Of a stretch of DNA of 64,000 nt, positions 33,683 through 61,076 are shown piece after piece. The DNA lies in assembly GCF_004010195.1 (NCBI RefSeq), contig NC_057724.1, positions 28,696,983 to 28,760,982 on the forward strand. Reading direction: 5' to 3'. The stretch is from Chiloscyllium plagiosum. Its lineage: Eukaryota. The position numbers and the translations under genes were made by a program. The notes beneath the pieces were generated by a model. The model did no database searches, was not told the origin of the DNA, and worked only from the letters and a program-made list of their open reading frames with translations. The first letter of the stretch is position 1. Every line of letters starts with the position of its first letter.

Positions 33683-33896
33683 ATGACAGAGCCAGTATTT
33701 GCAGCACCCTCTGATTTGATAGATTCTGGTCCAGCTCCATGTGACCTAAGTTTCATGGAAGTTATTGGTCAGAAAATGAGAATTCCTAATAGACTGAAAG
33801 TCACTGAGGAGCAAGAGGAGGAGGAGGAGGAGAAAGCAGAAGATATTCACCTATCAACACTGCGGATGCAGATTCCCGAAAGAATATCGATGGGAG
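33683..33896 (+). CDS. MFF/FATE1-like coding exon 1 (N-terminal R1/R2 repeats, poly-Glu spacer)
   Basis: Acceptor cctttag ends 33677, GCCATG start, donor GTAAAT at 33897 (phase 1). FMEVIGQKMRIPNRLKV...MQIPERISMG resembles MFF YTEGISQRMRVPEKLKV...MQVPERIVVAG. Confidence 0.9.
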
Positions 33897-39800: not shown

Positions 39801-42800
39801 TAAGGACAGGAAATGTTTGTTGCTGATTGCTGCTGTTGAAAATATTCACAATATCATGACTACTCAGATATTGAAGCAGTCCTTGGTCCAATTTTAATAA
39901 GACAATGAACAACATTCAGTCTTGGGTTGATAAATGGCAAGTAACATTTGCTCCACTCAAGTGTCAGACAATTATCGCTATTAAGAGAGAAACAAGCCAT
40001 CTCCTTTTCACATATAGTCACAATGCCATTGCTGAATCTACCACTATTACCATGTTGCAAGCTATATTCCTTTAACTATTTCTGCTGCTATGTGGGCATC
40101 CTAGGTCCATGCGCAGCAGTACCTTCCAAAATTAGAAGTTATTGCATGCAAACAGTGGCTGTGCAATTTGGAGCAAGCATTGCCTAGGCATTACTATTGA
40201 TGGGAAACTGAAATGGACCAACAATTTTAAATACTGTAGCTCCAGGAGAAGGTCAGAGGCTGGGAATTTTGCAGTCAGCGACTCGCCTCCTGAATTCCAA
40301 AATCTGACCACCATGTACATGGCACAAGCCTGGAGTATGATGGAATGTGCTCCACTTGCCTTGATGAATGCCACAATATTGAAGAAGCTTGACACCATTC
40401 AAGACAAAGCAGCCTGTGTGATTGGTGCTTAAACATTCACACAGCATACTATTGGGACACCATGAATGCAATGTGTATCACCTCTAAGGTACCCCCAACC
40501 TCTACCTAAAAATAACAGCAGCAACAGGTGCATGGGAACACAACCTCATTTAAGGATGGAGAATAAATATTATCAGCTATAGTAATTGGCCTCTTTAAAG
40601 ACAAGCTTTGAAGAAAGAGTCACGTGACCTTCTAGTCCAATCAGGGACCAAGTAGAGAATCTGTAAAAGGTTATGAGGACTCGCTCAGCAGTTGAATCTG
40701 GGAGCAAGTTACACTAGGATGTGTCATGTACTCTGTAAGTGTTATTGTATTCAGTTGTTTTATAACTTAACTAACACAGCTAGATACTTTCAACTATGTC
40801 AGATATGCACTCAAAATAAGAACCTAATATATAGCTAAGTGAATACTATTGGGAAATAGCGATTAGTTGCTTCAAATTAGAGAACTTGTTAATTGGATTT
40901 AAAAGATTGTACCTTTCTCTTTAGAAACAGAAATGCAGGATATTGGTGCAAGACCATACTTATATGGTTGGTTCCACAACAATCCATCGATAACAGATCC
41001 TCCACCACTCAGTATCTCTCCGAACTTAATATTTGGACCCAGCCATGCTTTGAATATGGACCGACCTGAGAGTCCAGTGCAGGTGTGTGAACAATAACAT
41101 TGTGTTTTTCCATATAGTATAGATGTACTTTTGAGGTTGCCAGAACAGCTGTCCTTCTCATTCCATCCACCCACCCTTCCAGCTACCCCATTTAATGGAG
41201 TTTAAAAACAGGAAACAGAGTTTGCATTTTTATTATGCCATCCATAGCCCTGAGTTATCCCAAAGCAGTTTATAGCTTATAAAATTATTTTGAAATGTCC
41301 TTAACGTTCAAATATAGAGACCAACTGCAGTCAATTTTCACATAATAAAGTCTAACAAGCAGCAATCAGACAATTGACTGAATAACAACCAATGCTGGAG
41401 ATCACAGTGGGTCAGACAGCATCGATGAAGAAAGAGCAAGTATACGTTTCGTGGTGTTGATTGAGGGAAGCAATTTCGATTAAAACAGCAGGAAAAAACC
41501 TCTACTGTTCATTTGAATAGTACCATGGGATCATTTATGTTCAGTAGATATGGGGCTTCTTGTTTCAAAACCTCTGGAAGACAGTATCTGCAACAGTGCA
41601 ACATTCTGTTAGTGCTGTATTGAATTTTCAGATTGGATTATGTGTTTAAATCTATATGAGATCCCTGAACCCATGGACCTTGTGACAAGGAGATGTAGGC
41701 ATTGCTGTTGGCCAGGGGTGATAGGTTTAAGTCTATGTAGTCAGTCTTTTGATCTCAGTTGGATAGGTTAAGTCCATTTTTGAGTGAGAGTTATTCACAG
41801 GTGTTCTGAGATCGTCTAAGATAAAAGAACAATGAACTCTCCTTAGTCTAGCATAGGATGGCTAAATAAAATCATGTGGTCAATGATTTACAAAGAATAG
41901 ACAACAGAATTAAATGTTTAAACCTTTCTTATAAGTTAAGTCTGGAGATATCCATGCATGGCTTGCCTATTGACGGTACTACTTAAAGAAAATGTTTATT
42001 CTGTCAATATTTACAAAACAAAATTCTCAATGCAAATATTACTGGCAAAGGAGTGAATTACTGATTCCTAGCTACCTTGATAAAGTAGAATGCTGACTTT
42101 TAAATTGAATTCACCCTAGCAAAAGCAAACACAGAATGTGCAATGTTATTTTATTGCAGACTGCTACTACCCAACATTCTAGTAGATCACGAGCATTAAG
42201 TGAGAATGAAATTTGTCTGTCAAGTGTGTCCAGACGGCAGAGGAATTTGTAAGTGCAATATGTTGATTTTGTCTGTTTGTGATGTTGCATAGCCAAATCT
42301 ACACAGCTAAAATAATGATAAATATGGCATTCCCAGAGACTGGAATGGAGTATCTAATATAGAATGGAAAGTTTAATAACTTTATTGAAGCCAATGGTTT
42401 TAAACTGTTATCACTCAATTAATGGAGAAGATCAAGTGGATAATGAATATTTAATCCCAAACAAAATAAACTTTATCAGACTTTTGTATATGCCATATAA
42501 TATTATAACTTGAATATTACAGCGGCTCATTACACACTTATTTTACATCAGGGACTGCAGGTTCATATTCAAAATTAGTTTGACCCAGTTCACAGGAGGC
42601 ACAGCCCTTATCAAAATTCCTCAGATAATCTGAGTTGAAAGGATGGTTAATCTGGGATTTGGATATACTTTATGCAAGATCTACTCTTTTGCTTTTGAAT
42701 TTTGGAATTGTTATGACCTACTGGGATAGAACATAAGTTGGGCCTTGTTATTCCCAGAGTCATCAAAAATTTTAAAGGTTTTTTTTAAAATGTACGCACA

Positions 42801-45800
42801 GTGCCCCAATTTATCTCATTTTCAAACCATTGGTCGTTAGAAAGCATCAACCACTTTTCTATACTAAATAAATCTATTATTTATAAGTAAACTGTAGTTA
42901 CAAGTAAACTGATATTAAAAAAATATCCTTTGCCATACAACACTATTAAGTAAAACTTTAATAATCTCCCCCTTTACGCACACATATTCACACCCACACA
43001 CACGCATGCCCTCATCGTCTTTGGTTTCCAGTTCTGATTTTGAGATTCCAGGCCCTTGGTGTTCAGGTGTTTTTTTCTTTTTGGAAGCCTTCACTGGTTT
43101 GTAAGTACAGAATGACTGATTCGCTTGGGAAATGTCTCTGCTCACAGCAGCTGCTGCAGGAAAGGTAACTGATTTCTTCGCGATGAAACCGAGGTTTTTT
43201 TTTAACAGCGGTTTCTGCTGTTGACACTTTTCTGTCTTTTTCTGTGCCTGTGTCTCTATAACTTGTTTCCAGTTCCAACCTGCTCAGTTTTCTCTTGTAA
43301 ATAACTCATCAGCTCCTCATTGCCCATTGTAGGAACCCATAGCCACAAAAGACAGAGTTCATAATAAGTATTCAATTCCTTGCTGTGAAATAATACAGCC
43401 GTCCAAGTAAAACCCTATTTTTAAAATAGTTTTTTCTCCTTGCAGTCCACAGATTTTAAAAACACAAAAATTAGGTGTATTTTTTTCAGGAGATTGATGA
43501 GAAGATGCAGTGAAATTAAACCAGCTCAAAATGCCAAATATATTCTTTCCTTCAGCAAAGACAGTTCTCCCATTTAACCAAAAACAGACATTGAAGATTA
43601 ACTCAATTGGTAAACAATAAAACCAATCAATTTCTGAATATATTAATATTTTTAATAGAGATTGCATCAATTTAAGACTCAAAAGCTACTATTTAATCTT
43701 AGATGAAAAGAAACGATGACTGGAAGTCTCTGAAAGCACCAATAAACTTCTAATTTTGCTATCTATTACTAGATTACCCCCATAGCCAGGTAACAATACA
43801 ATCACTGACAATTTGTCATCCTTTAGAATGACTTGATAATCACCAGGGAATAGAAAGGGTCATTTTGAGGCAGTGTGGAATATACAGCCTTCTCCAAAAC
43901 TGAAGAGCATGCTGCTTTGTGCCTCACTTCCAAACACTGTAATTTCTTAAATCACTGCCATAGCTAATATCACAGCTATGGAGTGTTAACTCTGAGGTAA
44001 TTGCTACTATGTATATATTCATTATCCATTTGTTTTTATTGAACATAAACATTTTGAATGCAGAAATGAAACTTTCGATAGTTTCATACATTGGCAAGTT
44101 TACATTGTGGTGTGAAGTGTAAAAGTAAAATCTTGCATTTATTTAGAGCCTTTCCTGGCATTAAACTTTCACTGTTATGAGACATCTCAAAGTACTTTGC
44201 AGGTGCTGAAATATCTTTGGATTGTGGTCACTATTATAATATAGGTGGTGCAGCAAGCATGCATTCAGCAAGTTCCACAAAGTCATTTGATAACAACCAA
44301 AAAATCTGTGTTGTTAATTGAGGAATTAATATTGGCCAGGACACCAGAATTAGCTTCTTCAAAATAATGCCATTGGATATTTTGCATCCCTGAGAGGATC
44401 TCAGTTTAGTGTCTCATCTGAAATTTGGCACCTACAATAGGGCACTCCCTCAGTATCATCTTTAATTTTTGTGCCCAAGTGTGAAGTAGGTTTCACGTAG
44501 TCTTAGTCATGCAGCATGGAAACAGACCCTTTGGTCCAACTTGTCCACGTGGACCAGGTATCCCAATCTGATCCAATCCCGTTTGGCCCACATCCCTCTA
44601 AACTCTTCCTATCCAGATGCCTTTTAAATGTTATAATTGTACCTGGCTCCACTACTTCCTCTGACAGCTCGATCCCCACACACATCTAGAATATTCTGGC
44701 TCAAAAGAGAAAGTGCTACCAACTAAGCCACACTGACACCAGTTGCACCTTCTATGTGACTCACTGAAACCTCTGTCCCATTGTACAACTTCATAATTGA
44801 CAGTTTGGTTAATATTTATCAAATAAACTTAACAATAAAACTCCGCTAACTTCTCTGTTAAAGAAAATAACATGGCCTAAATACAATGAGAGATGTTATA
44901 AATTTATTGTAATCTCCAGTTCATTCTAACATTTCAATCTTTCTTAACAATGTAAATTGACCACGATGTTTTTTTTTAACCAAGTTCTTTCAATCCAACC
45001 TCAAGGCCACTAATTTAAACAGACAGCAAAGAAATGGATGACTGAACAATTTGAGTGATTGTCCATAGCATTTGTTTTAATGTGTACCAGCCATTGTATA
45101 TGCAGTTTACATCTGAAATATTTTGCTATATCCCACAATATTTTACAGAAAATAACTTGAACTATGTCTGGGGAAAAATGAACTATATCCCTGTACTATT
45201 CAATTATTTGCTTTAACAATGTTATGCTTTATCCATTCTATAGGGCTGATCACTCCAGTGGTCCAAAACATCCCTTCCCTTCACCTGGACCTGGCCAGGC
45301 ATCCTTTTCAATTCATAATGTGTGCAACGTATTAATTTATGTTGGACAAAAACTATCAGAATACTTGATGGAAGCAGTCAATCAGAAAATGCAAAGAAGG
45401 TGATTGGAATTAGCATGTATAACACCAAAGAAATTTTTTGGTGTTCCTGCTAATATTCTTGATTAAGCTGTTCTTGAATGCATCACTTTAAAATTTGTTC
45501 ATTGTTACTGTTTCCCATAACAACTTATGCATCTGATTGTATGCTTGGCCATCAATACTTACGAAACTACCTAACTTACTACCTAACGAAACTACCAATA
45601 CTTACCTAACCAACAAAACTCCTCTAATTTGGGGAAACATTCAATAATTCACAAGTACTTTGTTTGGCAAAACATAACCATATTGCTGCAGGATCTTGAT
45701 ATCTGACTTAACCCCTGTTTTTGTGAAGCATGTTAACTTGTAAGAGAAATTTCTGTGCTTCTGAACACTCTGGGGATTAGAGTACAGTTCCATTTTTGTG

Positions 45801-48800
45801 CCAATTTTCAGCATTTAATAACCCTGATTAAATACTGCATGAACTAAATGAAGATCTGATTAATGCCACTTCTCTCATCAGCTATCATTGAAAGCATTGG
45901 ATTTACATAATGTGATGTTTATGTGCTTTGAAGCTATTTACTGAAGTCAACAAGCCAATCAAGCACTGGTTTGTTGTGAAATATAAGTAAAAATAACAAC
46001 AATAAAATCAGAAATTGTCAATCTCACAAGTCGAAATAAAATTTATATTACGTACGGAGAGGTTCAGAATATTGCATATGAACCTTTCGTGTGGAGACTA
46101 AAATTGTTCTCCATTTTTGATGGAGGAAAGGAATATAGAGTCACCTACCAATGGTGCCTTTCTAATGTAACTGAATATAGTCCTTTTATATAAATTTCTA
46201 TCAGCAGGAAATTACAGAAGGAAGGAATTTGGACACAATTATGCAATTTTAACTCAATCGTAACTCAGTTACGAAGTTTAAAGTAGGATCAGTGTCAGCA
46301 AATTATCTGGTTCAGGAAGCTAACTCATGAGCAGTGTACACTGGACACTGGAACTACTTAACCCATAAAATGCTTCGATCCTTTATCATTGCAGTTACTG
46401 TTGAAGAAGCCAGTGAAAGGCCTAACTCTCTTGCATATCTAACATAAAACTTGCTATCTCTTAACTGTCTATAGTTAACTGTGTTTGTAATTTCTTGGCC
46501 CGCCATGTTTTTAGATTATAAACATGCGATGAGCAGTTTGAGTAGATCGTTTGGGCCCTCAAGCTTGCTCTACAATTCAATACGATTATGGCTGATTTGT
46601 GTGTGTTTCAAATATCACATTCTCGTTTATTCCCAATAATGTTTGCTTCCCTTCCCGAACAAGAATTTATATTCTAAAAGCAAAATATTGTGAATGCTGG
46701 AGATCCAAAATAAAAACAATAAGTGCTGGAGAAACTCAGCAAGTCTGTCAGCATCAGTGGAGAGATAAAAACAGATTTAACATTTTTGAGTTTGATGAAT
46801 CATTGGCTTTGAAACATTAACTTTGTTTCTATCTCCACAGATTTTCCCAGACTTGCTGGGCTTCTCCAGCAATTTCTGTTTTAATCTACTTATGCCTTAA
46901 GATTTAATGACCCCCACTTTTACCTTCATCTGAGACAATTTCAAAGACTCATAGATTTTTCTCATCTCTGTCCAAAAAGGGCAATCCCTGATTTTCAAAC
47001 AGTGCCTCCTAGTTCTGAACTAGTCCACAAGAAGGAATGTCCTTTCCATGGCCTTCTTGTCAAGGCCATTCAGGATTTCCTACACTTCAAACCGGTCACC
47101 CCTTAACTCTAAACTCCCAACAAACATAAGTAGTCTGTCCAACCTATTCTCTTATTTCAGCCCATTCATTCCAAACACCAACGTACTAAGCCTCCTCTGA
47201 AAAGCCTCCAAAACATTTACATTCTTCATTAAGTAAGGAAACCAAAACTGTATTTGAAATATGTTCACTCAATGTAATGTTTAACTGAAGCACAACATCC
47301 TTACTGATATGTTCAATTCCTGTAATAAAACATAGCATCCTATTGACCTGTTGATTATGTACTGTATTTGCATTCAAAGTTTGTGAGAAGATTTGTAGCT
47401 CGGGTGCTCGTTGTTGTGGTTCTGTTCGCCGAGCTGGGAACTTGTGTTGCAGACGTTTCGTCCCCTGTCTAGGTGACATCCTCAGTGCTTGGGAGCCTCC
47501 TGTGACGCGTTTCTGTGATCTTTCCTCCGCCATTTGTAGTGGTTTGAATCTGCCGCTTGCGGTTGTCAGTTCCAGCTGTCCTTTGCAGTGGTCAGTATAT
47601 TGGGTCCAGGTCGATGTGCTTATTGATTGTATAGATCTACAGATTCAATCAACACAGGAATTCTTAGACATCATCAGAAATATACACATAGACAAGGAAG
47701 AAACCATGGTCTCATTCGATGTAACGGCACTGTTCACCTCTATCGACAAAACCCTAGCCAGAGAAGCAATAGCCAACCTGCTGGACATACAGAACAGACA
47801 ATAGGACGTTGAACCTATCAACAAAGACGGCATACTCAAACTACTCGACCTGTGCCTCACAACATGCTTCACATTCAATAACCAAATATATGAACAAATC
47901 AACGGCACACCCATGGGCTCACCCATCTCTGGACTCGTTGCAGAAGCGGTAACGCAAAGATTAGAACAAACAGTCTTACCACAAATTCAACCCAAACTCT
48001 GGGTCAGATATGTGGATGATACCTTTGTAATCATTAAAAACACAGCAATAGAGAACACACACCGGATCATCAACGACACATTCACAGGAATCCGATTCAC
48101 GAGAGAGGAAGAAAAGGACAACCAACTCCCATACCTAGACGTGGTGGTACAGAGAACACCTAACGGAGAATTCACCACAAAGGTATACAGGAAAGCCACA
48201 CACAGACCAAGTCCTGAACTACGAAAGCAACCACCCCAACACACACAAAAGAAGTTGCATCAAGAAACTATTCAAAAGGGCCACAACACACTGCAGTACA
48301 CCAGAATGCAAAAAGAGGAAGAAGAACACCTATACAACGTATTCGCCAAAAACGGATACCCCGCGCAATTTCATCAATAGATGCCTAAGGGAAAGACAAC
48401 GGAATGAGGACATGCCGCAACCCAAAGGACTAGCCACACTACCATACATCAAGAGCATTTCCGAACTGACAGCCAGACTATTGCGACCACTAGGACTCAT
48501 TACAGCACATAAACCAGCAGCCACTCTCAGACAACAACTCACCAGAACGAAGGACCCAATACCCAGCATGAGCAAAACCAATGTAGTGTACAAAATCCCA
48601 TGCAAGGACTGCACAAAACACTACATAGGACAAACAGGAAGACAGCTAACAATCCGCATCCATGAACACCAACTAGCCACGAAACGACACGACCAACTAT
48701 CCTTAGTAGCCACACATGCAGATGACAAGTATCATGAGTTCAACTGGGACAACACTACTATTATAGGACAAGCCAAACAGAGAACAGCCAGGGAATTCCT

Positions 48801-51800
48801 GGTTGGCACTCATCCACAGATTCAATCAATAAGCACATCGACTTGGACCCAATATACCCTGCAACGGACAGCTGGAACTGACAACCGGAAGCGGCAGATT
48901 CAAACCACTACAAATGCCACCGACCACTGCAACGGACAGCTGGAACTGACAACCGGAAGCGGCAGATTCAAACCACTACAAAATGGCGGAGGAAAGATCA
49001 CAGAAGCGCTTCACAGGAGGCTCCCAAGCACTGAGGATGTCACCGCAACACAAATTCCCAGCTCGGCGAACAGAACCACAACACTGTATTTGCATGTTTA
49101 TGACTCGCGCAGTAGAATACTTAAATCTATCTGCACCTCAGAATTCCACAGTCTTTTTCATTTCAGTAGTATTTTGCTTTTAAATTCTTCTGACTAAAAT
49201 GAGCAACTTCATGTTTTCCAACATTTATACTTCACCTACCAGGTCCCACACAGACCTCTGTGGAACATCCTGCCAATCAGGCAAAGAATGATTTATGCTT
49301 ACTAAGCCAGCCAGCCAATCTTCTTTCCATGCTAGTATAGCACCCCCTGCACTGGGTTTTTATTTCACACTACCTTTTAATATGACATATTATCAGATGC
49401 CTTCTATAAATCTAAGTTTAGTATGTCACTATGTCAACCCTTTACGTTTGCTTGGTATCATTTCTCTTAGGATTATAATTTCACAAAATTCCTTTTCCCT
49501 TCCACCTCCTCCTGATTTGTACCTGTTACTGGATTTTTTTTGTATTCTCTATTGTGTAACAGAAGGAAAATCTTGTTCATTTCATCTGCCATTTCAATAT
49601 TACCTACTCTGAACTCCCATTTTCTCTCACTCTCTCCAGGATTTAATACACACTTTATTTACTTTTTTTTCTCTCCTTTTTTAAATATCAGACAAAGATT
49701 TTTCTATTTGTTTTTACACACCTCGCTAGATTCCACTCACTCCAATTTATTCCTCTTAATTAACTTTTCAGTCATTTTCTCCTGTTCTTCAAATTCTGAC
49801 CAATCATCTGACCTACCACTCATCTTTGCACAGTTGCATGCTTTTTCCTTAAGTTTGAAGCTTTCCTTAATTTCTTTAGTTAACCATACAGATGGTCCTC
49901 TCTTTTTCTTTATAGTGGTGATCTATTTATTCTGAAATATCTCCTGAAATGTTTGCCACTGTGTCCCTATTGATCTACCTTCTAACTTAATAAGCCAGTT
50001 AATTTCAGCTAGCTCAGCTTTCCTGCCCATACTTGTGCTTATTTAGGTTTAACATACTAATCTTAAATGCAACATTTTCCCTTTCAAATGCAATATAGAA
50101 TTCAAACATTGTGTTCGTAGTATACAGGACTGCTGGTATACTGAGGTCATTAATTTTGTCACATTGCACAATTCCGAGATAATATAAAAAGAAAACCAAA
50201 AAACTGCGGGTGCTGGAAATCAGAAACACAAATAGAAGTTGCTGGAAACATTCAGCAGATTCTGGCAGCGTCTCTGGAGATATAAGGTCCAGTGATTCTT
50301 CTTCAGAAATGGGTTTCAGTGAGCAGGTTATTGCTGAGCCGATGCTGCTTGATTGCTCTTGATACCTTCCATCACTTTACTGATGATTGAGACTAATGGG
50401 GTGTTAATTGACCGGGTTGGATTTATCTGGTTTGTTTGTACAAGACATATCTTGCCAATTTTCCATGTTGTTGGGTAGGTACTAGTGTTATAACAGTAGT
50501 GAAAAAGCTTGTCTAGAAGAGTGGCAAGTTCTGGAATACAAGTCTTCAGTGCTACTACTGGAATGTTATCAGGTCCCATAGCCTTTCCGCCATCCAGTGC
50601 CTCCAGTCCCTTTTTGATATCACATGGAGTGAATCAAATTGATGGAAGACTGCCATCTGTGATGCTGAAGACCACTGGAGGAGGCCAAAATGGATCATCT
50701 ACTTGACACTTCTGGCTGAAGATTGTTGCAAATACGTCAGTCTTTTGCACTGATATGTTGGGCTCCCCCATCAATGAGGATGGGGATATTTGTGGAACCT
50801 CCCCTTCCAGTGAGTTCTGAATTGTCCATCCACCATTCATGACTGGAAGTGGCAGAACTTCAAAGTTTAGATCTGATCCATTGGTTGTGGGATTGTTTAG
50901 CCCTATCACATGCTGTTTGGCGTGAAGTAGTCTTGTTTGGTAGCTGCACCAGTTTTACAGGTATGCCTGATGCTGCTCCTGGCATGTCCCCCTGTAGTCT
51001 CCATAGAACCTGGGTTGATCCCTGGCTTGACGGTAGTGCTTGAGTGGTGGATATGTAAAGCCATGAGGTTGCAGATTGTGCTGGAGTACAGTTCTGCTGC
51101 TGTTGATGGCCCAAAGCACCCTCATAGATGCCCAGTCTTGAATTACTAGATCTATTCAAAATCTGTCCCATTTACCAATGTGATAATGCCACATATCAAG
51201 ATGGAGGGTATTTTTAATGTGAAGATGGGACTTTGACTCCATAAGGACTGTGCTGTGGTCACTTTCACTGGTCAGACGATCTACAGCTGGCAGTTTGGTA
51301 AGGATGAGGTCAAGTATGTTTTTCCCTCTTATTGGTTCCCTCACCAACTGCCATATACCCAGTCTAGCAGCTGTGTCCTTTAGGATTTGACACACTCCAT
51401 CAGTCATGCTGCTGCTGAGCCACTTGTGGTGGACGTTGAAATCCCCCACCCAGAGTACATTTTGTAAACTTGCCACCCTCGGTGCTTCCTCCAAATGTTG
51501 TTCAACATGGAGGAGTACTAATTCATCAGTAATGGGAGGAAGGCATATGGAAATCAACAGGAGGTTTTCATGTCGATGTTTAACCTGGAGCCATTATACT
51601 TGGTGTCTGGAGTGAATATTGAGGACTCTTGGGACAATTCCATCATGACTGTATACCACTCTGCTGCCACCCCTGCTGGCTTTGCCCTGTTTGTGGGGCA
51701 GGATATATCCAGGGATAGTGATAGTTGTGTCTGAGGCATTGTTTATGGGGGATATGTTCATGAGCATATCTGGAAGTTGCTTGATTAGTCTGTGAGACCG

Positions 51801-54800
51801 CTGTCCCTGTTTTGTCACTAGTCCCCAGATGTTAGTCAGGAGGACTTTACAGTGTTGACAGGGCTTTTCTTTCTTGTCTACTTTCTGGGTTGATGCCAGG
51901 TAGTCGTCTGGTTTTATTGAGACTTTGTGGAGATTGATTCAATTGAGTGGCTTGCTATGCAGTTTCAGAGGGCAATTGAACGCCAACTGCATTGCTGTGT
52001 GTCTGGAATCATGTAAGCCAGAGCAGATGAAGATGGCAGATTTCCTTCCCTGAATCAGGTAGATTTTTCCAATAATCGATATGGTTTCATTCAGACCTGC
52101 TGCATTTTGCCAGCAATTTCTGCTTTGCTGTGAACCCCTCATCCAGGTTACACTTGCCAATCGAATTTTCTCATTTATTTGTTGACTAAAGTCACCGATA
52201 TTGCCATCTTTTTATCAAAAGTTTTTTTGTAGGTAAGGGAGGTAATTTTGCTGGAATGAAAGCAGTATAGCTGGAAATCTGAAGCAAACACAGAATACTG
52301 GAGAAATTCAGCAGGACTGGGAGTTTGCGGAGAGAGAAACAGAGTTAATGTTTCAAGCCTAGTATGACTTCTTCAGAACTCTTCTGAGGAAGAGTCATGC
52401 CAGATTAAAAACATTAGCTCTGTTTCTGTCTTCACAGATGCTGCCAGACCTGCTGAGTTTCTCCAGTATTCTCTGAATCTTGCAGGAATAACTGTTTGGA
52501 AGATGTATTATTCTCAGGTTGATTTTGCACACTTCCTGACAAAAACAGCCTGTGCATCCTTTCTCTGGAGAAATCAGAACATGTTGAGGACATATTCTCA
52601 GTTAAAAATAGGTTACTATTTGTATTTTAATTTACCTGTCATGGTAGAATGGACCACAGAGCGGGTTTGAAAGTGTGTACAGTCTAGTTATATACATAAA
52701 TGGCACTTTGTGACAAAATATGGACTGTAATGAACATGAACAGCTAGTGTTCTTAGTACTGGTACTCAATTAGTATTGAATTATATACCCTTTTACTTTA
52801 AGTTACACTTCTTTTTAGGTGTATGTAGAACATGTGATGGGGCTATAAATATTTATGAATAGCATCAGTTGTGGTAGAGAGTTGAGTCCATGCCAGCAGC
52901 CTCTACGTGAGGTTGATTGGTGTCTGTAGGTGTTAATGTTGGGATAGTCAAGTCAATAGCTGAGTTAGTGTTTGCCTTTTCAGGCCTCTCTTACCTTGAG
53001 CAAATTTAGCTTTCTACCAATACAGCATTGGTAAATAGCAGTGGAAATGACTTGTCATATTTTAGTGCCCCACACAATTCCCCTAACAAAAGATTCTGCA
53101 AAATAAAGTCAGCAAGAAATAAGGGAAAATGTCTAAGTTGTGCAGGGACTTTGTGATATTAAGTTGCTTTGACTTAGCTGGTATTTCTATGGCCAATCCA
53201 ATTTATTTTTCCACTTTAAGGAATCGGTTCCATAACCAGTCCCTTTCAGGCCGCCTGTATTCGGATGGAATCAATCAAGCAAGGTATTCAAGGTGATTGG
53301 CATGTTTACTTGATGCATTTGTGTTAACATGCTGTGGTGTTAGTATCATTTTTCTTCTTTACACCTTTTATACTGTACAATGATTTTAATAAATCCTATG
53401 ATGGGGTGTTTAATATTTGCATCTATCGACTGTACTCAAATTGTACTGAAGTTATGGATTCCAATCAAATCAGCAAAGCTACTTTGGAGCATATGTGCAC
53501 TAAACCCTGAGTATATCATGTGCGATTGGGGAAGGAAGTAAAATTGTAATGCTCCACTTGCTTGAGAGCAAAAAGAAAGTGTTAAAAAGTAAGGTTATTT
53601 ACTAAAATTATCTGCAAACATAGCTTGTGAATGAGATATAAGAGGAGATTTGTACAAAAAAAAAATTCTTTTGTTCCCTTTCCCATTCCTGATCTTTTTT
53701 TTCTTGGTCTTCTGTTATGCTTTGTTTCTGTTTACAGTTTTCCAATTGGTTTTCTACGTTGTTCATCGTATTTCAGTTCTACATCTGAACTCGTATCTTC
53801 TTCTCTTTAAGCCTCAACTAACTCAAATCCTTCGCCCTTTCATATTATGGACAGAGTCTTCTGCTATCATGTCTTCACACCTTTTGGAATACTCTTGCAA
53901 CAATAGACCCAATATAAAAGTTGAAGTTCTAAATTGGAGAAAGGCCAATTTTGACGGTATTAGGCAAGATCTTTCAAAAGCTGATTGGGGGCAGATGTTC
54001 GCAGGTAAAGGGACGGCTGGAAAATGGGAAGCTTTCAGAAATGAGGTAATGAGAATCTAGAAAAAGTATATTCCTGTTAGGGTGAAAGGAAAGGCTGGTA
54101 GGTTTAGGGAATGCTGGGTAAAGAAGTTGAGGGTTTGGTTAAGAAAAAGAAGGAAGCATATGTCAGGTATAGACAGGATAGATTAAGTGAATCCTTAGAA
54201 GAGTATAAAGGCAGTAGGAGTATACTTAAGAGGGAAATCAGGAGTGCAAAAAGGGTACATGAGATAGCTTTGGCAAATAGAATTAAAGATAATCCAAAGA
54301 GTTTTTACAAATACATTAAAGACAAAAGGGTAACTAGGGAGACAATATGGCTCCTCAAAGATCAGCAAGGCGGCCTTTGTGTGGATCGGCAGAAAATGGG
54401 GGGAGATACTAAATGAGTATTTTGTATCATTATTTACTGTAGAAAAGGACATGGAAGATATAGAATGTAGGGAAATAGATGGTGACATCTTGCAAAATGT
54501 CCATATTACAGAGGAGGAAGTGCTGGATGTCTTGAAATGGGTAAAGGTGGATAAATCCCCAGGACCTGATCAGGTGTACCCCTCGAACGCTGTGGGAAGC
54601 TAGAGAACTGATTGCTGGATTTCTTGCTGAGATATTTGTATCATAAATAGTCATAGGTGAGGTGCCAGAAAACTGGAGGTTGGCAAACGTCGTGCCACTG
54701 TTTAAGAAGGGTGGTAAGGACAAGCCAAGGAACTATAGACCAGTGAGCATGACCTTGGTAGTGGGCAAGTTGCTGGAGGGAAATCTGAGGGACAGGATGT

Positions 54801-57800
54801 ACATGTATTTGGAAAGGCAAGGACTGATTAGGGATAGTCAACATGGCTTTGTGTGTGGGAAATCATGTCTCACAAACTTGATTGAATGTTTTGAAGAAAT
54901 AACAAAGAGGATTGATGAGGGCAGAGCGGTAGATGTGATCTATATGGACTTCAGTAAGGTGTTCGATAAGGTTCCCCATGGGAGACTGGTTAGCAAGGTT
55001 AGATCACATGGAATATAGAGAGAACTAGCCATTTGGATACAGAACTGTTTCAAAGGTAGAAGACCGTGGGTGGTAATGGAGGGTTATTTTTCAGAATGGA
55101 GGCCTGTGACCAGTGGAATGCCACAAGGATCGGTGCTGGGTCTACTGCCTTTCATCATTTATATAAATGATTTGGATGCGGGCATAAGAAGTATGGTTAG
55201 TAAGTTTGCAGATGACACCAAAATTGGAGGTGTAGTGGACAGCGAAAAAGGTTACCTCAGAATACAACAGGATCTGGACCAGATGGGCCAATGGACTGAG
55301 AAGTGGCAGATGGAGTTTAATTCAGATAAATGTGAGGTGATGCATTTTGGGAAAGCAAATCTTAGCAGGACTTATATACCTTAATGGTAAGGTGCTAAGG
55401 AGTGTTGCTGAACAAAGAGACGTTGGAGTGCAGGTTCATAGCTGCTTGAAAGTGGAGTTGCAGGTAGATAGGATAGTGAAGAAGGCGTTTGGTATGCTTT
55501 CCTTTATTGGTCAGAGTACTGAGTACAGGACTTGGAAGGTCATGTTGCGGCTGTATAGGACATTGGTTAGGCCACTGTTGGAATATTGCGTGCAATTCTG
55601 GTCTCCTTCCTATCAGAAAGATGTTGTAAAACTTGAAAGGATTCAGAAGGTATTTACAATGATGTTGCCAGGGTTGGAGGATTTGAGCTATAGGGAGAGG
55701 CTGGGGCTGTTTTCCCTGGAGCGTCGGAGGCTGAGGGGTGACCTTATAGAGGTTGACAAAATTATGAGGGGCATAAATAGACAAAGTCTTTTCCCTGGGG
55801 GGGGGGGGGGGGGAGTCCAGAACTAGAGGGCATAGGTTTAGGGTGAGAGAGGAAAGGTATAAAAAAGACCTAAGGGGCAACTTTTTCACGCAGAGGGTGG
55901 TATGTGTATGGAATAAGTTGCTAGAGGAAGTGGTGGAGGCTGGTACAATTGCAACATTTAAGAGGCATTTGGATGGGTATATGAATCGGAAGGGCTTGGA
56001 GGGATGTGGGCCAGGTGCTGGCAGGTGGGACTAGATTGGGTTTGGATATCTGGTCAGCATGGCTGGGTTGGACCTAAGGGTCTGTTTCCATGCTGTACAT
56101 CTTTATGACTCTAAGTCTTGCTAACTCTTTCCCAATCTCAAAATCTCCTTGCTTGGTCGTGTTTGTACTCCATGAAATTGCATTTTCTCCCTTGAATCCT
56201 GATGTACTTTTCGATCTTTCATGAAATTAATATGTCGTATAGTTACACATTGTATTCATGAATACCATTCATTGTATTGCCAAATTTACCAATAAGAATA
56301 TAAAAATCTCAAAGGAATTTGGACCGCTTGAACTGGAGTACATCATAATAAATCTAATTTAAAAGAAGCAAAGGATATAGTTTCATGTGCATAGAAGGGA
56401 CGCATATTTATTATTAAAATACCAATTAATGGAAAAAAAGATAATTGGCCATACATTGAAGTTTCCAATTCATAAGTGTTGCCAGAGAGGCAATTTCAGT
56501 ATCTGTTAAGCATTTCAAGGACAATAATTGAATAGTCCTACACCTACACCTATAATAAATAATCTAAATGTCAATAGTTTATTTTTAAAAATCTACTTTG
56601 TTATGTTTATGTGCAAATGGGTCCCTTTTCATTGTGCTTGTGGAATTTTCTGCAAACTTGATTTTACAAAGTTTGGTAAAATCCATACTACTGACAGATG
56701 ACCAACTTCTATTCAGGTGGATTTTTTTGGCAAGTTAAAAAAGGAATGATGTACACTTGAATAATAAATATTTAGTTTGTATACTGATGTACCAGTCTTT
56801 CAAAGAGCTGTCAAGGTGTTGCAGAAGAGGCTGCTAAATAAGATAAGACCTGATGATGTTAGGAACAAGGTGATGGCATGGATAAAGAAGGCTGAAAGTG
56901 TGGATAAAGGGGTCTTTTCCAGAATGGTAGCTGGTGACTACTAGATTCCTGCAGGGGTCAGTGTTGGGGCCACAACTATTCACATTATACATGAACAATT
57001 GGAATGAAGAAACTGAGGACATTATTGCTAAGTTTGCAGAAAACACAAAGACTGAGGGACAGGTGGTGTTGAGGAGGTGGGTTGGTGCAAAAGGATTTGG
57101 ATAGGCTAGGAGATTGGGCGAAGAAGTAGCAAATGGAATATAATGTGGGATGGTTTGAGGTTATACAATTTGGTAGGATTAATAGAGGCATAGAGTATTT
57201 TTTAAATGGAGAAAGACTTTAGAAATCTGAAGTATAAAGGAACTTAGTGCTAGTTCAGGATTCTCAAGGTTAATATGCAGGTCTAGGCAATTAGGAGGCA
57301 AATGCAATGGTAGCATTCATTTTGAGATAGCTAGAATGCAAGAGGGATGTAATGCTGAAGCTGTATAAGGCTTTAGTCAGATTACATTTGGAATATTGAG
57401 AGCAGTTTTGGGCCCTGTATCTAAAGAACAATGCCCTGGCCTGGAAGGGGTCCAGAGGAGATTTACAAGAATGATCCTGTGGATGAAAGGCTTGTCTTAC
57501 GAGGAGCAGTTGAAGACTCTGGGTTTGTACTGGATGGAGTTTAGAAGGATGAATGGGATCTCGTGGAAACTTAGAGAATATTGAGAGCCATGGATAGATT
57601 GGACATGGAGAATGTGTTTCTGCTAGACCGGGACCCAAAGGTACAGCTTCAGAGTGAAGGGATAACCCTTTAGAACTGAGATGAGGAATTTCTTCAACCA
57701 GAGGATGGTGAATCTGTGGAATTCATTACCACAGAAGACTGTGGAGACTTGATGACATAGATAGGGTCTTGATTAGTTGGGGGATCAAAGGTTACAGGGC

Positions 57801-60800
57801 AAAGGCAGGAGAATTGGGTTAAGAAACAGAGCAGAGTCAAGATTAGAGTGGTGCTGGAAAAACACAGCAGATCAGGCAGCATCCAAGGAGCAGAAAATTG
57901 ACATTTCTGGCAAAAACCCTTCGTCAGGAATGAGGCCTGATGAAGGGCTTTTGCCCGAAACATAGATTTTCCTGCTCCTCGGATGCTGCCTAACGTGAGC
58001 TTTTCCAGCACCACTCTATTCTTGACTCTGATCTCCAGCATCTGCAGTCCTCATTTTCACCTAAGAAACAGATCAGCCATGATCAAGTGGGAGGGCAGAC
58101 TCAATGGACTGAATAGACTAATTCTACTCCTATATATTACTGTCTATTATTATGGCTCTCAACTATACATTTGGAGGAGGAAGAGGAGAGACCAGTTTAT
58201 CAAATGCTGAGCTGTTTTTTTAGTTTCAAGGAAGTGAATGAATGGTGATTCAGTGCGTCTGTTACTGCAGAATGCGTTTTCACTGAATGAGCTTCAATAC
58301 ATTAGTCCTTGTCATGATTGTATTAAGATACCTCTCTACAATAAAAGACTTGCATTTATATATGACTGCATGTATTCTTTGAGACATCAGAAAGCTCTTC
58401 TCAGGAAATTTATATTTAAAGTATAATTACTGCTGGATTGATATTCCTCTATCTTTGTGGGATTTCAAAACTAGAAAAAAGATTGATTGTTACAACATGA
58501 TAACAAGAAGTTGTACATTCCAGGATTTCTTAGCTTCTTAGAGCAGTTCCCATGAATTAGAAGGTAGCAAACATTAGAAGGAAGCCTATTATTTAAGAAA
58601 GGAGGGAAAGGCAAAACTAGCAATTACAGACCAGTTAGTCTATCGTTTATCTCGGCAAAATGCTAAAATTTATAATTAGCAATGTGGTAACAGGCACTTA
58701 GAAAATCATGCCATGGTTAAGCAAAGCCAACGTTTGTGGTTTATTAAGGGAAAATGTGTTTGCTAAATCTGAGTTTTTGAGGATATTAGATGATTAAGAA
58801 GGGACCAGTAGTTGTAATACTGTAATATGTTTGGAATGTACTACAGGAGATTGTTGCAGAAAATTAGAACTTATAGGGGTGGGGTGGGGTGGGGGGTTAG
58901 GTATTGGCAGAGATTGAAGACTTGTTAATGGACAGAAGAATGAGTAGGAATAAACATGTACTTTTGGATTGTCATATTGTAACTAGTGATATACTTCAAG
59001 GATCAGTACTTGAGATTCAGCTTTTTACAATTCATCTTTGTGATCTAAATGAAGGACTGACAAAATATTAAAGTTTGTTAATAGGAAAGTAAATGCTGAG
59101 GATGATGCAGAGAAACTACGTAAGAATAGAAACTGGTTGGATGGGTGGACATGAACGTTGAATGCAATATGGTGAAGTTATCCGCTTTAGTGAAAAAAGT
59201 TTAAAAGTAGAATATTTTTGGTGAAAAACTGGGCAAAGTTAGCGAATTAGAGAGCCCTGGGTGTCCTTGTAAGTGTATCATAAAGTTAATATGCTATTGC
59301 AGCAAGCTGTTATGAAGGCAAATGGTATGTTATCTTTTGTTTGGTGCATAACAGCAAAGACATTTTACTCCCATTGTACAGGGAACTCATGAGGATGTGC
59401 AAGGAATGCTTTACCTCATGAATAACATACTTGACCAAGGCTGAGTATAACAAAGATTTGCCAAAGTGGTTCTAGCGGTAAGTGACTGGCTGTTGAGCAG
59501 ATAATGAGTAGATTAGGTCTTTATTACTTAGACTTTAGAAGATCGGATTGAAAAATGCACAATTCTTTTGGGACTTTACCGTGTTGATGCTGAGAAAATG
59601 TGTATCCTAAATGGAAGTATGGCTCCTGTCGGAGAATAAGGAATCAACCATTAAAGAGATGAAGAGGAATGTTTTCACTGAGTGCTGCAGAGACTGGTAG
59701 ATATTGATGGTGTTCAAGACTGACATTAATTTTTTTGTGTGTGTTTTAAAGAATGTGGGAACAGCGCAGGAAGGTAGATTTCAGGTGGAAGATCAGCCGT
59801 GATCTTGTTGAATGACATAGCAGGCTTGGAAGGCAAAACAACCTGCTCCTCCTAATTCTTACATTCTTACAGTACCCTTTAATGTATGGAACCATCTCAG
59901 GATGCTTTACAGATACAATTTCAGAAAAAAGATTGGGAGGCGTGATCCAGAACTAGGTCAAAGAAATGAATTTTGAGGAGATGTTTAAGGAGTAGAGTGT
60001 GGTACCTGGATGGAAATTGACATTGTTAAGTGTGGGACAAAGAAAATGAAGCATGCACAAAGTCAGATTCATAAGAGTGGAGAGTTCATGGGGATATGTT
60101 TGGTTGTCTGGCTGGAAGAGGTTGGAGATGATTTAAAGTAAAGCTATGAAGGCAGTTTAGCATGTTGATTATTGGAATTTAAAATTTCTTCCTGGTGACA
60201 GGGTGTCAATGCAGACCAACAAGGATGAGGATAATGGATGAGTGAAATGGCATTGGTTATGATATGGTTAGTAGAGTTTAATTGATCCGGTTTATGGATG
60301 GTAGATTTTTTTGTAGAATTAAGGAGTCTGCGCTAGCTGATAAAGCTTTTCCTAGTGATTAACATTTTGCCATAAATCTGAAAGTTGAAGTTTGACAAGG
60401 TCTGTTCTGCATAATAATTGTATTTCAGAAATTGGGGAGTGCTTTCCTAAAACCACAATTGGAAATGAACAAAGTTTGTTTGCCTTCTAATTTTCCAGCA
60501 TTACCCATGACTACACAGTGCCTGAGGGAGTCCTTGAAAATTTCAGTGTCATGGAAATTGTAACACTCCGGCGTCAGGTAAAAAGTTTTGACCAGCAACA
60601 TTTATGTGTATAGTATAATAAATGTGACGATTAGACTGTTGCAGGAACAGGAACTTTCCTGGAGTTGGGATTTAGTTTTATTTTCAGGGCTGTGTGTATC
60701 CTTATCTGGAAAATGTTTTCCAAACACAACATGAAGAATGGGTGTTGGACAATTTGTCCAAAATCTTAGACTGCAAAGCAACTTCAGACGCTCAGTAAAA

Positions 60801-61076
60801 TAATTTTAACACTAGATTGTCCTCCTAGTTTGTAGAGATCCAATTTAAATCCGTGGGAAAGGGGAAGAAAACAATGATTTGTTGTTTTTATTTTGGTGTT
60901 GAACTCCTTCATTGTGCAATAGGGTTAACCTTTCTCTCTTTCAGCTGAACAAGTTGAATCGGCGCCTACAATTATTGGAACAGGAAAGTCGGGACCATGC
61001 TCGAAAGGAATTTGTACTCTATTCCATCATCATAGCAGCTTGTTTTGTCAACAGTTGGCTCTGGTTGAGGAAGTAG
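33683..61076 (+). CDS. Mitochondrial fission factor (MFF)/FATE1-family gene, 7 coding exons, 296 aa; syntenic position of FATE1
   Basis: Exons of 214+158+89+156+63+79+132 = 891 nt, all GT-AG, compatible phases (1,0,2,2,2,0), no internal stop. MFF hallmarks: MRIPNRLKV and MQIPERISMG repeats, RSRALSEN, LRRQ|LNKLNRRLQLLE coiled coil, tail anchor ending NSWLWLRK*. Confidence 0.9.
35446..37935 (-). mobile_element. Antisense CR1 LINE (35446-36515 and 37809-37935) split by a younger copy
   Basis: Minus-strand LYRTLVRPLLEYCVQF, RGNVFTQRVVQMWNEL; the QHxF/KSC junction is broken at about 36514 and resumes at about 37809 (GNYRLVSLTSVVG). Confidence 0.8.
36516..37808 (+). mobile_element. Young 5'-truncated CR1/HER1 LINE
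   Basis: 259-aa open RT fragment with GVPQGS and KFADD; intact 3' UTR and ctatgactatga tail. Confidence 0.93.
38720..38990. repeat. Degenerate (CA)/(CT) low-complexity tract
   Basis: Directly visible; explains the spurious His/Thr/Leu-rich ORFs. Confidence 0.75.
39480..40570 (+). mobile_element. Old L2/CR1-group LINE RT 3' fragment
   Basis: LVALDIEAPFD-like (KAFD) motif at about 39580, and MECAPLALMNATILKKLDTIQDKAACVIG. Confidence 0.6.
40925..41082 (+). CDS. MFF/FATE1-like coding exon 2
   Basis: Acceptor cctttctctttag, open frame ETEMQDIGARPYLYGWFHNNPSITDPPPLSISPNLIFGPSHALNMDRPESPVQ, donor CAG|GTGTGT; phase 1 to 0 fits its neighbours. Confidence 0.78.
41220..41710 (-). mobile_element. Deu-domain SINE (SacSINE1/AmnSINE-like) with an embedded Penelope pLTR piece (about 41380-41452)
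   Basis: ttgcattt...cccaaagc...ttgaggga...gaatagtaccatgggatc, reverse complement of the recalled Deu core; parallels 44130-44480. Confidence 0.55.
42160..42248 (+). CDS. MFF/FATE1-like coding exon 3 (RxRxxSEN motif)
   Basis: Acceptor ttattttattgcag, TATTQHSSRSRALSENEICLSSVSRRQRN, donor GTAAGT; phase 0 to 2; resembles the MFF RERSMSEN exon. Confidence 0.82.
44130..44745 (-). mobile_element. Deu-domain SINE interrupted by a CR1 3' end (about 44497-44685, minus)
   Basis: ttgaggaattaatattggccaggacacc...gtctcatctgaaa...gcactccctcagta is the reverse complement of the recalled Deu domain; tRNA-like head remnant accaactaagccac at about 44720. Confidence 0.65.
45244..45399 (+). CDS. MFF/FATE1-like coding exon 4 (symmetric 156-nt cassette)
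   Basis: Acceptor ccattctatag, open only in phase 2: ADHSSGPKHPFPSPGPGQASFSIHNVCNVLIYVGQKLSEYLMEAVNQKMQR; donor AG|GTGATT. Confidence 0.75.
46676..46882. mobile_element. Palindromic Penelope pLTR-derived miniature element (degenerate)
   Basis: gctggagaaactcagcaagtctg ... cagacttgctgggcttctccagc inverted arms; gaaacattaact hammerhead 3' remnant. Confidence 0.65.
47374..49082 (+). mobile_element. Penelope-like retroelement (Poseidon-type): inverted pseudo-LTR, 5'-truncated RT, GIY-YIG endonuclease, pseudo-LTR; 13-bp TSD
   Basis: VSFDVTALFTSI, GTPMGSPIS, WVRYVDDTF, NVVYKIPCKDCTKHYIGQTGRQLTIRIHEH. 47374-47629 is largely the reverse complement of 48823-49082. ACTGTATTTGCAT at 47361-47373 and 49083-49095. 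Stop and frameshifts present. Confidence 0.95.
47448..47489 (-). ncRNA. Minimal type I hammerhead ribozyme motif in the Penelope pseudo-LTR
   Basis: Minus strand GCA-CUGAGGA-U-GUCaCCU(AGAC)AGGgGAC-GAAA-CGUC-UGC: complete core, stem II, palindromic ACGU stem III, GUC cleavage triplet, 3-bp stem I. Confidence 0.75.
50190..50312 (-). mobile_element. Penelope pLTR fragment with truncated hammerhead
   Basis: aactgcgggtgctggaaatcagaaac...ctggcagcgtct...ggtccagtgattcttcttcagaa. Confidence 0.65.
50313..51935 (-). mobile_element. L2/CR1-group LINE fragment with APE endonuclease and RT N-terminus
   Basis: LWVGDFNVHH, REPIRGKNILDLILT, SDH (APE motifs) and MGPDNIP...PTTWKIG (RT start); frameshifted. 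Confidence 0.8.
52258..52475. mobile_element. Palindromic twin-hammerhead pLTR miniature element with degenerate 14-bp TSD
   Basis: Inverted arms centred near 52380 (cttcagaact|cttctgagga); flanks aattttgctggaat (52244-52257) and aatcttgcaggaat (52476-52489), 12/14 match. Confidence 0.75.
53221..53283 (+). CDS. MFF/FATE1-like coding exon 5 (symmetric 63-nt cassette)
   Basis: Acceptor tttttccactttaag, NRFHNQSLSGRLYSDGINQA, donor AAG|GTATTC; CpG-containing island in an AT-rich intron; phase 2-2. Confidence 0.68.
53905..56113 (+). mobile_element. Young CR1/HER1 LINE, longest copy (about 2.2 kb), frameshifted
   Basis: NWRKANFDGIR, DKSPGPDQ, YMDFSKVFDKVPH, PQGS, KFADD, 3' UTR and atgactcta tail; poly-G expansion at about 55797-55813. 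Confidence 0.95.
56835..58145 (+). mobile_element. Older CR1 LINE 3' half, split by a palindromic insert
   Basis: cctgcaggggtcagtgttggggcc (PQGSVLG), aagtttgcaga (KFA), LEGVQRRFTRMI, 3' UTR atcagccatgatc. Confidence 0.8.
57831..58061. mobile_element. Palindromic twin-hammerhead pLTR miniature element with perfect 11-bp TSD
   Basis: TAAGAAACAGA at 57820-57830 and 58062-58072; arms cagagtcaagattagagtggtgctggaaaa / ttttccagcaccactctattcttgactctg; CTGATGAagggcttttgcccGAAA at 57937-57960 and its inverted partner at 57904-57927. Confidence 0.85.
58440..59870 (+). mobile_element. Very old CR1 LINE RT fragment
   Basis: tttaagaaaggaggg...aattacagaccagttagtct (FKKG..NYRPVSL), cttcaaggatcagtactt (QGSVL), CR1 3' UTR gatcagccgtgatc. 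Confidence 0.7.
60499..60577 (+). CDS. MFF/FATE1-like coding exon 6
   Basis: Branch-point-like ttctaat plus tttccag acceptor, ITHDYTVPEGVLENFSVMEIVTLRRQ, donor CAG|GTAAAA; ends in LRRQ like MFF. Confidence 0.88.
60945..61076 (+). CDS. MFF/FATE1-like last coding exon (coiled coil plus C-terminal tail anchor)
   Basis: Acceptor tttctctctttcag; LNKLNRRLQLLEQESRDHARKEFVLYSIIIAACFVNSWLWLRK then TAG at 61074-61076; compare MFF IIKLNRRLQLLEEENKERAKREMVMYSITVAFWLLNSWLWFRR (recalled). Confidence 0.93.
   Translation: MNKLNRRLQLLEQESRDHARKEFVLYSIIIAACFVNSWLWLRK

Follow-up and report, generated by a model that had tools for sequence, protein, structure and literature searches.

We describe a gene of the bamboo shark Chiloscyllium plagiosum that belongs to the Miff family (Pfam PF05644) and that, judged by the phylogeny of its product, is almost certainly the shark orthologue of FATE1. 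The gene lies in a window of 64,000 nucleotides (contig NC_057724.1, positions 28,696,983 to 28,760,982) and is accompanied in the same genome by a separate, true MFF gene. Sequence comparisons place the duplication that separated MFF from FATE1 before cartilaginous and bony fishes diverged. Work on FATE1 has treated it as a cancer-testis survival factor whose likeness to MFF is confined to the tail; if it is the decayed partner in an ancient pair of MFF duplicates, this likeness is accounted for. Part of the picture was already known: the gene and its family are annotated, homology of MFF and FATE1 is in print, and RefSeq already gives the name FATE1 to several bird copies and one turtle isoform, and not to the shark and fish copies seen there. 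Within the literature searched, no paper on the history of duplication and decay in this pair was found.

The open reading frame of 296 amino acids suggested by a sequence-only reading of this DNA is real. It extends from an ATG at 33683 to a stop codon ending at 61076 and is composed of seven coding exons (Table 1), with AG at every acceptor and GT at every donor. A single frame stays open after splicing and yields 296 amino acids with the exon 5 donor at 53283, or 299 with the donor at 53292 (+9 nt). Exon 1 (45 bits, E 1.4e-11) and exon 7 (50 bits, E 5.2e-13) each exceed the curated cut-off of the Miff family, 23 bits. The two repeats read from the sequence are present and score above their shuffled maxima, and the coiled coil and tail anchor are borne out by exon 7, which shares 24 of 43 residues with MFF, reaches a top 19-residue hydropathy of 1.94 and ends in basic residues. 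Exon 4 is absent from many annotated isoforms of the relatives of this gene. An AlphaFold model of the alignment of the window gene (A1) had a mean pLDDT of 41, too weak to inform the fold, and a PDB search with the same alignment returned three chance matches only (E about 0.7-0.9).

Table 1. Coding exons and repeat cores of the window gene, and the gene upstream of it (positions within the window)
Feature	Position	Strand	Description
Upstream PRRG-type gene, last coding exon	3606..4160	+	TM and PPxY motifs; matched by N-terminus of wombat FATE1 model, E 7e-8
Exon 1	33683..33896	+	214 nt, end phase 1; carries R1 and R2; length and phase as in C13 MFF exon 1
R1 repeat core	33776..33802	+	MRIPNRLKV; PSSM 31.9, shuffled maximum -2
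R2 repeat core	33866..33892	+	MQIPERISM; PSSM 12.9, shuffled maximum 2
Exon 2	40925..41082	+	158 nt, phase 1 to 0; site of the MFF third conserved block (likely R3), not detectable in this gene
Exon 3	42160..42248	+	89 nt, same as MFF; S155- and S172-equivalent positions
Exon 4	45244..45399	+	156 nt, phase 2-2 cassette
Exon 5	53221..53283 or 53221..53292	+	63 or 72 nt by donor, phase 2-2 cassette
Exon 6	60499..60577	+	79 nt, phase 2 to 0; coiled coil begins
Exon 7	60945..61076	+	132 nt, same as MFF; coiled coil, tail-anchor TM, basic tail, stop

Two Miff loci were found in the genome, on the chromosomes here called C13 and C15, the latter carrying the window gene. The C13 gene is the separate, more conserved MFF that the sequence-only reading had proposed to look for: its identity with two teleost MFFs is 61-62%, compared with 28-30% for the window gene, and the two shark genes are 31% identical to each other. 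A collagen IV pair lies about 54 kb from the C13 gene and none adjoins the window gene; in human the order is COL4A3-MFF. The C13 gene is the true MFF, and by both the tree and collagen IV adjacency the window gene is not an MFF orthologue. Both genes have seven exons with identical phases throughout (214/158/89/156/72/79/132 nt in the window gene, 214/164/89/171/63/85/132 nt in MFF), the same R1/R2 spacing, central cassette exons, a coiled coil, a transmembrane segment (TM) and a basic tail. They differ in chromosome and neighbours, in the third conserved block of MFF, which the window gene lacks, and at two residues in exon 3 considered below.

In a tree of 50 sequences, the window gene falls into a FATE clade of 29 rows (support 99/95*), separate from the MFF clade (98/99*), and the last 62 residues alone again place it with FATE1 (98/95*). 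AU tests reject a group of the window gene and MFF (p=0.008) as well as the group of eutherian FATE1 and MFF that is expected if FATE1 were a young offshoot (p=0.003). The gene is almost certainly, as had been suggested, the FATE1 of a cartilaginous fish, and FATE1 an old duplicate instead of a mammalian novelty. Of the 25 bony-vertebrate rows of the FATE clade, 23, including 9/9 therian ones, have a C-terminus that matches the window gene with a higher score than C13 MFF, and all nine other MFF rows score the opposite way. A TM signature containing cysteine is present in 24/29 FATE-clade rows and in 0/10 MFF rows. The FATE1 model of the wombat finds its best match in the shark genome in exon 7 (E 2.9e-5; MFF only E 0.53), and Atlas named a region of the crow protein as Miff. 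The trees were built without human, mouse, chicken, zebrafish and Xenopus, and full-length eutherian FATE1 is represented in them by two afrotherian sequences; word-indexed homologue searches gave no human FATE1. The branch of the eutherian rows is long (1.66), and monotremes are paired with marsupials (83/20), contrary to the species tree.

The repeats were scored with a position-specific matrix built from 43 rows that comprise MFF, lamprey and invertebrate sequences, the threshold being the maximum of 60 shuffles. R1 is invariant at 9/9 positions in 13 chondrichthyan rows; R2 of the window gene is invariant at 6/9 positions among chondrichthyan rows, and its score is weaker than that of MFF R2 (about 30). 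Among non-therian rows of the FATE clade, R1 exceeds the shuffled maximum in 19/19 and R2 in 18/19. Both repeats are present in bony fishes, amphibians, reptiles, birds and monotremes, and the MFF spacing of R1 is kept as far as monotremes. Bird, turtle and monotreme entries named 'FATE1' or 'MFF homolog B-like' likewise carry R1 and R2, lack the third block and fall into the same clade, differing from the shark gene by lineage and sequence only. The designation 'missing link' therefore does not suit the shark gene, since the repeat-bearing form occurs throughout non-therian jawed vertebrates up to the platypus and in some birds is called FATE1 already. In marsupial FATE1 the repeats are eroded, and in the two placental proteins (177 and 221 aa, both afrotherian) the matrix detects neither of them. 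Mammalian FATE1 shares with the shark protein the clade, the TM signature, the PRRG gene upstream and the missing third block; the shark protein is longer (about 300 aa), with strong R1 and R2. The sequence-only reading had FATE1 without Drp1-recruiting repeats: according to a preprint (10.1101/2025.08.18.670752), human FATE1 has indeed lost R1, but an R2-like motif is retained.

The third conserved block of MFF, likely R3, scores at best -11 in the window gene, compared with 37 in C13 MFF, and stays below its own shuffled maximum in 26/26 FATE-clade rows scored. The position equivalent to the AMPK site S172 of MFF (numbering of PMC11451547) is Asn in the window gene and Asn or Lys in 12/12 orthologues; that equivalent to S155 is Ala, with Thr in 10/12 orthologues. 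The suggestion of a full MFF architecture thus holds for the seven exons, their phases, R1/R2 and the tail, and fails for the third block and the S172 equivalent. According to PMC4666140, R1 and R2 form the minimal unit binding the Drp1 stalk, R1+R2 alone bound only Drp1 without insert B, and in two-hybrid tests full-length Drp1 was no longer recruited once R3 had been deleted.

Since R1 and R2 are kept, we lean towards the view that the product of the window gene still acts as a second, weaker anchor for Drp1. The TM and basic tail would insert it into the outer membrane of mitochondria, with peroxisomes or ER as possible further sites; its oligomerisation would be mediated by the coiled coil, and the clustered N-terminal repeats could bind the stalk of oligomeric Drp1. 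We propose that, for want of the third block, full-length Drp1 would be recruited more poorly than by MFF and that, for want of S172, the response to AMPK would be weaker. Decay of exon 1 in therian mammals may then have left the anchor and the coiled coil, that is, human FATE1, which according to the preprint cited above (10.1101/2025.08.18.670752) lacks R1, does not recruit Drp1, resides on ER and mitochondria and promotes hyperfusion via Mfn2.

The same ancestry could tentatively be read with the opposite role, although we consider this rather unlikely: the protein would be a decoy or brake in sharks already, and the anti-fission role of FATE1 would be ancient. R1 and R2 could bind Drp1 unproductively, or the coiled coil could mix into MFF oligomers and dilute R3, the repeats becoming dispensable later. 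Such a role is favoured by loss of the third block in the entire clade together with the two-hybrid dependence of full-length Drp1 on R3, by the exon 7 identity with MFF and by the hyperfusion ascribed to human FATE1. Invariance of R1 in chondrichthyans and its retention up to monotremes fit real engagement of Drp1, with which a decoy is still compatible. Returning to the anchor, the chances seem to us about even that a second, so far unstudied Drp1 receptor of MFF type has existed in jawed vertebrates since before sharks and bony fishes diverged, and that it lost its repeats stepwise in therians to become the anti-fission FATE1 of testis and cancer. Shark, platypus, marsupial and placental proteins would in that case be living intermediates for a direct test of the functional switch, their graded loss of R1/R2 offering natural constructs for dating the change from fission adaptor to fusion promoter. 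The predicted second adaptor could also buffer MFF knock-outs in non-therian vertebrates.

As to how the pair originated, an early vertebrate genome duplication is the probable source. C13, C15 and C6 carry one collagen IV pair each, and C15 and C12 have paralogues of PRRG, TMEM47-like and SYTL genes in common, which is the pattern expected of chromosomes derived from genome duplication. Lampreys possess two genes, one of them weakly sister to the FATE clade (93/86); an AU test did not separate the possible timings of the duplication relative to lampreys (p=0.146). A local or segmental duplication before the radiation of jawed vertebrates, with either function of the product, is improbable but has several observations in its favour. 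No neighbouring gene family was found common to the C13 and C15 loci, the collagen IV pair of C15 is 33 Mb away from the window gene and so forms a link at chromosome scale only, and C12, home of the paralogous PRRG/TMEM47-like neighbourhood, has no Miff match.

Synteny with the mammalian FATE1 locus is half kept. A PRRG-type gene, presumably PRRG3, does lie upstream on the same strand; its Gla exon is situated 4 kb before the window. Pfam names no family for its exon or for the TMEM47-like exon, and in Atlas the PRRG exon is unnamed. With its N-terminus, the wombat FATE1 model matches the PRRG exon of the window at E 3e-7 and the C12 paralogue of that exon at E 2e-4, which supports an upstream PRRG link common to the window gene and the marsupial model. 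The anticipated order PRRG3-FATE1-CNGA2 breaks down on the other side: SYTL4 and CSTF2 exons follow within 200 kb downstream, where human Xq28 has CNGA2. The sole CNG-alpha CLZ match on C15, best matching CNGA2, is at 1.92 Mb, 26.8 Mb away, and CNGA2, VMA21 and CD99L2 all lie about 27-40 Mb from the window gene. The missing adjacency does not undo the orthology. It might be invoked, with the RefSeq name 'MFF-like' and the equal C-terminal scores of the window gene against shark MFF and the coelacanth orthologue (182 each), for a chondrichthyan duplicate of MFF unrelated to FATE1 and beside PRRG by chance. This very improbable reading is largely refuted by the AU rejection of a grouping with MFF, the starred support in two trees, the distribution of the TM signature and the wombat model, in which a PRRG-like exon is fused to FATE1.

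The RefSeq protein 'mitochondrial fission factor-like [Chiloscyllium plagiosum]' (P0001) is 100% identical to exon 1, and its sequence maps to exons 1-6; in place of exon 7 it uses a pair of exons that lie 23-26 kb past the window. That such a product without tail anchor is the main form in this species, or that the gene is decaying, is highly doubtful despite this omission, for exon 7 is intact with a good acceptor, the last 62 residues of the protein are identical to those of Heptranchias, exon 7 terminates 23/26 chondrichthyan models and the contig depth of run X1 is consistent with exons 6 and 7 on one transcript. A model of C. punctatum (P0002) includes exon 7 at 100% identity. The RNA runs bear no tissue labels. 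Repeat-derived contigs dominate positions 41030-61029, and therefore no splice joint of the window gene appears among the 15 joints listed there (985 more exist). RNA-like contig pieces from runs X1 and X4 start exactly at 45244, the first position of exon 4, and depth arithmetic in run X1 favours the 72-nt form of exon 5.

The gene on the plus strand of the window has seven coding exons, delimited by a splice-site scan together with tblastn searches with annotated relatives (see table). After splicing they form a single open frame of 296 or 299 amino acids, depending on the exon-5 donor, which confirms the repeat-bearing ORF of MFF type described by the sequence-only reading. This is a genuine gene that RefSeq has annotated, though under a non-committal name: the RefSeq protein "mitochondrial fission factor-like [Chiloscyllium plagiosum]" (P0001) is identical to window exon 1, and a search with the exon-1 protein had 25 protein matches, in sharks, rays and a chimaera. 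The P0001 model joins exons 1-6 to two other terminal exons lying just beyond the 3'-most SYTL4 exon seen, and its protein lacks the tail anchor; this ending represents a minor isoform produced by read-through, or else an annotation error. Exon 7 is the final exon in 23 of 26 chondrichthyan models.

Features of the gene, its paralogue and its surroundings (plain numbers are window positions; the window is C15 28,696,983-28,760,982, and C13 is the chromosome of the true MFF)
Feature	Position	Exon lengths (nt) or remark
Window gene	33683-61076 (+)	214/158/89/156/72/79/132
MFF	C13	214/164/89/171/63/85/132
Probable upstream 5' exons	28183-28206, 29452-29529	match N-terminal extension of C. punctatum model P0002
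ATG	33683	
R1 and R2, starts	33776, 33866	single frame
Glutamate run	33803-33835	between R1 and R2
Intron start after exon 4	45400-45407	same 8 nt in C13 MFF
Reverse-transcriptase element fragments	47400-49200	intron 4, partly as inverted repeat
Exon-5 donors	53283, 53292	296 aa, 299 aa
Intron start at longer exon-5 donor	53293-53300	same 8 nt
Assembly gap	61459-62324	about 380 bases past stop codon
Terminal exons of P0001	C15 28,784,200-28,786,798	23-26 kb past window end
TMEM47-like exon	C15 28,562,070-28,562,207	about 135 kb upstream of window
CNG-alpha gene	C15 1.92 Mb	
CD99L2-family match (stronger)	C15 67.3 Mb	
VMA21	C15 68.3 Mb	

Four sequencing runs were placed on 41030-61029, and no splice joint of the gene is among the joints listed, because repeats filled the joint table. 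In run X1, which we guess to be RNA and whose organism code differs from those of the best DNA sources, a contig of 1188 nt (depth 25) has one piece beginning exactly at the exon 4 acceptor. If this contig spans exon 3, the bin depth expected there is 3.34 (seen, 3.52); the corresponding values are 10.46 and 10.5 for exon 4, with a second contig added, and 6.24 and 6.31 for exons 6-7. For exon 5 a depth of 2.73 was seen, with 2.70 expected for 72 nt and 2.36 for 63 nt. From these depths, not from counted junctions, we infer that the contig covers exons 3-7 with the 72-nt exon 5. The join of exons 1 and 2 comes from RefSeq models, as the stretch examined in the runs started at 41030. The gap near the stop codon means that the 3' UTR may be incomplete. 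The element in intron 4 has what we take to be a GIY-YIG-like end, and presumably CR1-like fragments lie in several introns.

Searching cluster representatives by profile yielded 170 matches (best 150 of 170 listed), and 30 named proteins were looked up: "MFF-like" proteins of fish (coelacanth, lungfish, reedfish, sturgeon, bowfin, teleost), amphibians (caecilian, newt), reptiles (lizard, turtle), bird and platypus, and FATE1 of marsupials and placentals. From about 230 proteins 50 rows were chosen; isoforms, near-copies and the majority of fragments and invertebrates were dropped. Human, mouse, chicken, zebrafish and Xenopus are absent from the trees, the eutherian branch is long and several MFF rows are partial or nameless. 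In the 50-row tree (230 columns) the window gene and all FATE1-named rows form a clade of 29 rows (support 99/95), with MFF in a clade of its own (98/99). The FATE clade recurs at 98/95 in a tree on the last 62 residues only, where the outgroup does not make up one side of a branch. AU tests rejected grouping with MFF both for the shark gene (p=0.008) and for eutherian FATE1 (p=0.003), and C-terminal scores were higher for the window gene than for C13 MFF in 23 of 25 bony-vertebrate clade rows, both exceptions being teleost. On this evidence the gene belongs with FATE1, as had been proposed.

Retention of the repeats was scored with a PSSM built on 43 rows of MFF, lamprey and invertebrate proteins and no FATE-clade row; it was applied, with 60 shuffles each, to all clade rows but Heptranchias and two fragments (26 of 29). 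R1 exceeded the shuffled maximum in 19/19 non-therian rows (scores 12.9-48.5), 2/5 marsupials (at most 9.1) and 0/2 placentals; the corresponding counts for R2 were 18/19, at most 1/5 and 0/2. The third conserved block did so in 0/26. The sequence-only interpretation is correct in its essentials, and goes too far in describing a full-architecture missing link. Among chondrichthyans R1 is invariant at 9/9 positions (13 rows) and exon 7 at 37/44 (12 rows), against 2/24 in exon 5, so there is strong constraint on the repeats. The glutamate run is longer in Chiloscyllium than in other aligned sharks. With AMPK sites numbered after PMC11451547, the S172 position is Asn or Lys in 12/12 orthologues, and that of S155 is Ala in the window gene and Thr in 10/12, so only S172 is lost throughout.

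In PMC4666140, R1 plus R2 and the Drp1 stalk are the minimal interaction unit, and truncations without R3 no longer bind full-length Drp1. R3 would correspond to residues 93-106 of shark MFF, because these form the third conserved block and would be truncated in a fragment 1-100. The mechanism that we favour, with somewhat better than even confidence, is that the product would serve as a tail-anchored, oligomeric Drp1 adaptor of lower affinity and under less AMPK control. The main rival, possible though clearly less probable, is that it is a decoy bearing R1 and R2. According to a preprint (10.1101/2025.08.18.670752), human FATE1 fails to recruit Drp1, promotes hyperfusion that depends on Mfn2 and has kept only an R2-like motif.

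A separate, more conserved MFF, which the sequence-only reading had led us to expect, is present in the genome. Searching with the Miff profile (PF05644) gave eight matches, six on C13 and two within the window. Against two teleost MFFs the C13 protein shows 61-62% identity and the window protein 28-30%; between the two shark proteins identity is 31%. Exon phases are identical in the two shark genes. A collagen IV pair starts about 54 kb from C13 MFF, presumably matching a human COL4A3-MFF adjacency. The window gene is therefore a duplicate of the whole gene made at the DNA level, neither a retrocopy nor the orthologue of MFF. P0087, a database cluster representative, has a stretch recognised by eye as collagen IV NC1-like fused to an MFF tail, which would fit an adjacency of collagen IV and MFF in another species. 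Annotated isoforms in relatives, and of a teleost MFF, lack exons 4 and 5; with the common 8-nt intron start, this suggests a pattern of splicing that may be older than the duplication.

The 50-row tree places the duplication before the split of sharks and bony fish. Collagen IV pairs on each of C6, C13 and C15 are consistent with genome-duplication paralogy, at chromosome scale only. Lampreys have two Miff genes (P0031, P0094, P0105), one weakly sister to the FATE clade (93/86), and an AU test did not reject placing all lampreys outside (p=0.146). Together these make origin by genome duplication likely, and no more. The other lamprey Miff gene retains the third block; models of the weakly placed one are incomplete.

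Homology of MFF and FATE1 is already in print, with 29% identity over coiled coil and TM noted in PMC4660212. In RefSeq the name FATE1 is already given to repeat-bearing proteins of eagle, hawk and owl and to a turtle isoform, so the databases already imply that FATE1 is no mammalian novelty. No description of the orthologue in sharks or fish, of the paralogy or of the gradual loss of the repeats was found in the open literature, a scope outside which lie earlier key FATE1/MFF papers, ohnolog tables and preprint supplements; the available portions of PMC12828049, PMC7541902, PMC12873935 and PMC12631067 are silent on all three. Prior mention of any of the three may exist.

Synteny is half kept. 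The upstream neighbour on the same strand encodes Gla, TM and PPxY elements and is, we assume, PRRG3. Downstream, where CNGA2 had been expected, SYTL4 (minus strand, PDB matches) and CSTF2 (Pfam) lie within 200 kb, both presumably Xq22 genes in human. The CNG-alpha gene of C15 is closest to CNGA2 (680 bits, 667 for CNGA3), and so the proposed adjacency to CNGA2 fails, but the CNGA2, VMA21 and CD99L2-family markers all share the chromosome of the window gene. An N-terminal stretch of the RefSeq wombat FATE1 model P0223 matches the last exon of the upstream PRRG-type gene (E 7e-8), and does so better than it matches the C12 paralogue of that gene; this suggests that the two genes adjoin in a marsupial as well. 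P0223 itself is probably a model in which neighbouring genes were merged or joined by read-through. Farther upstream on C15 lies an exon that we take to be TMEM47-like. On C12 paralogues of the PRRG gene and of this exon lie 0.6 Mb apart, which suggests that the arrangement upstream of the shark gene is ancient and that the order in human Xq28 is derived.
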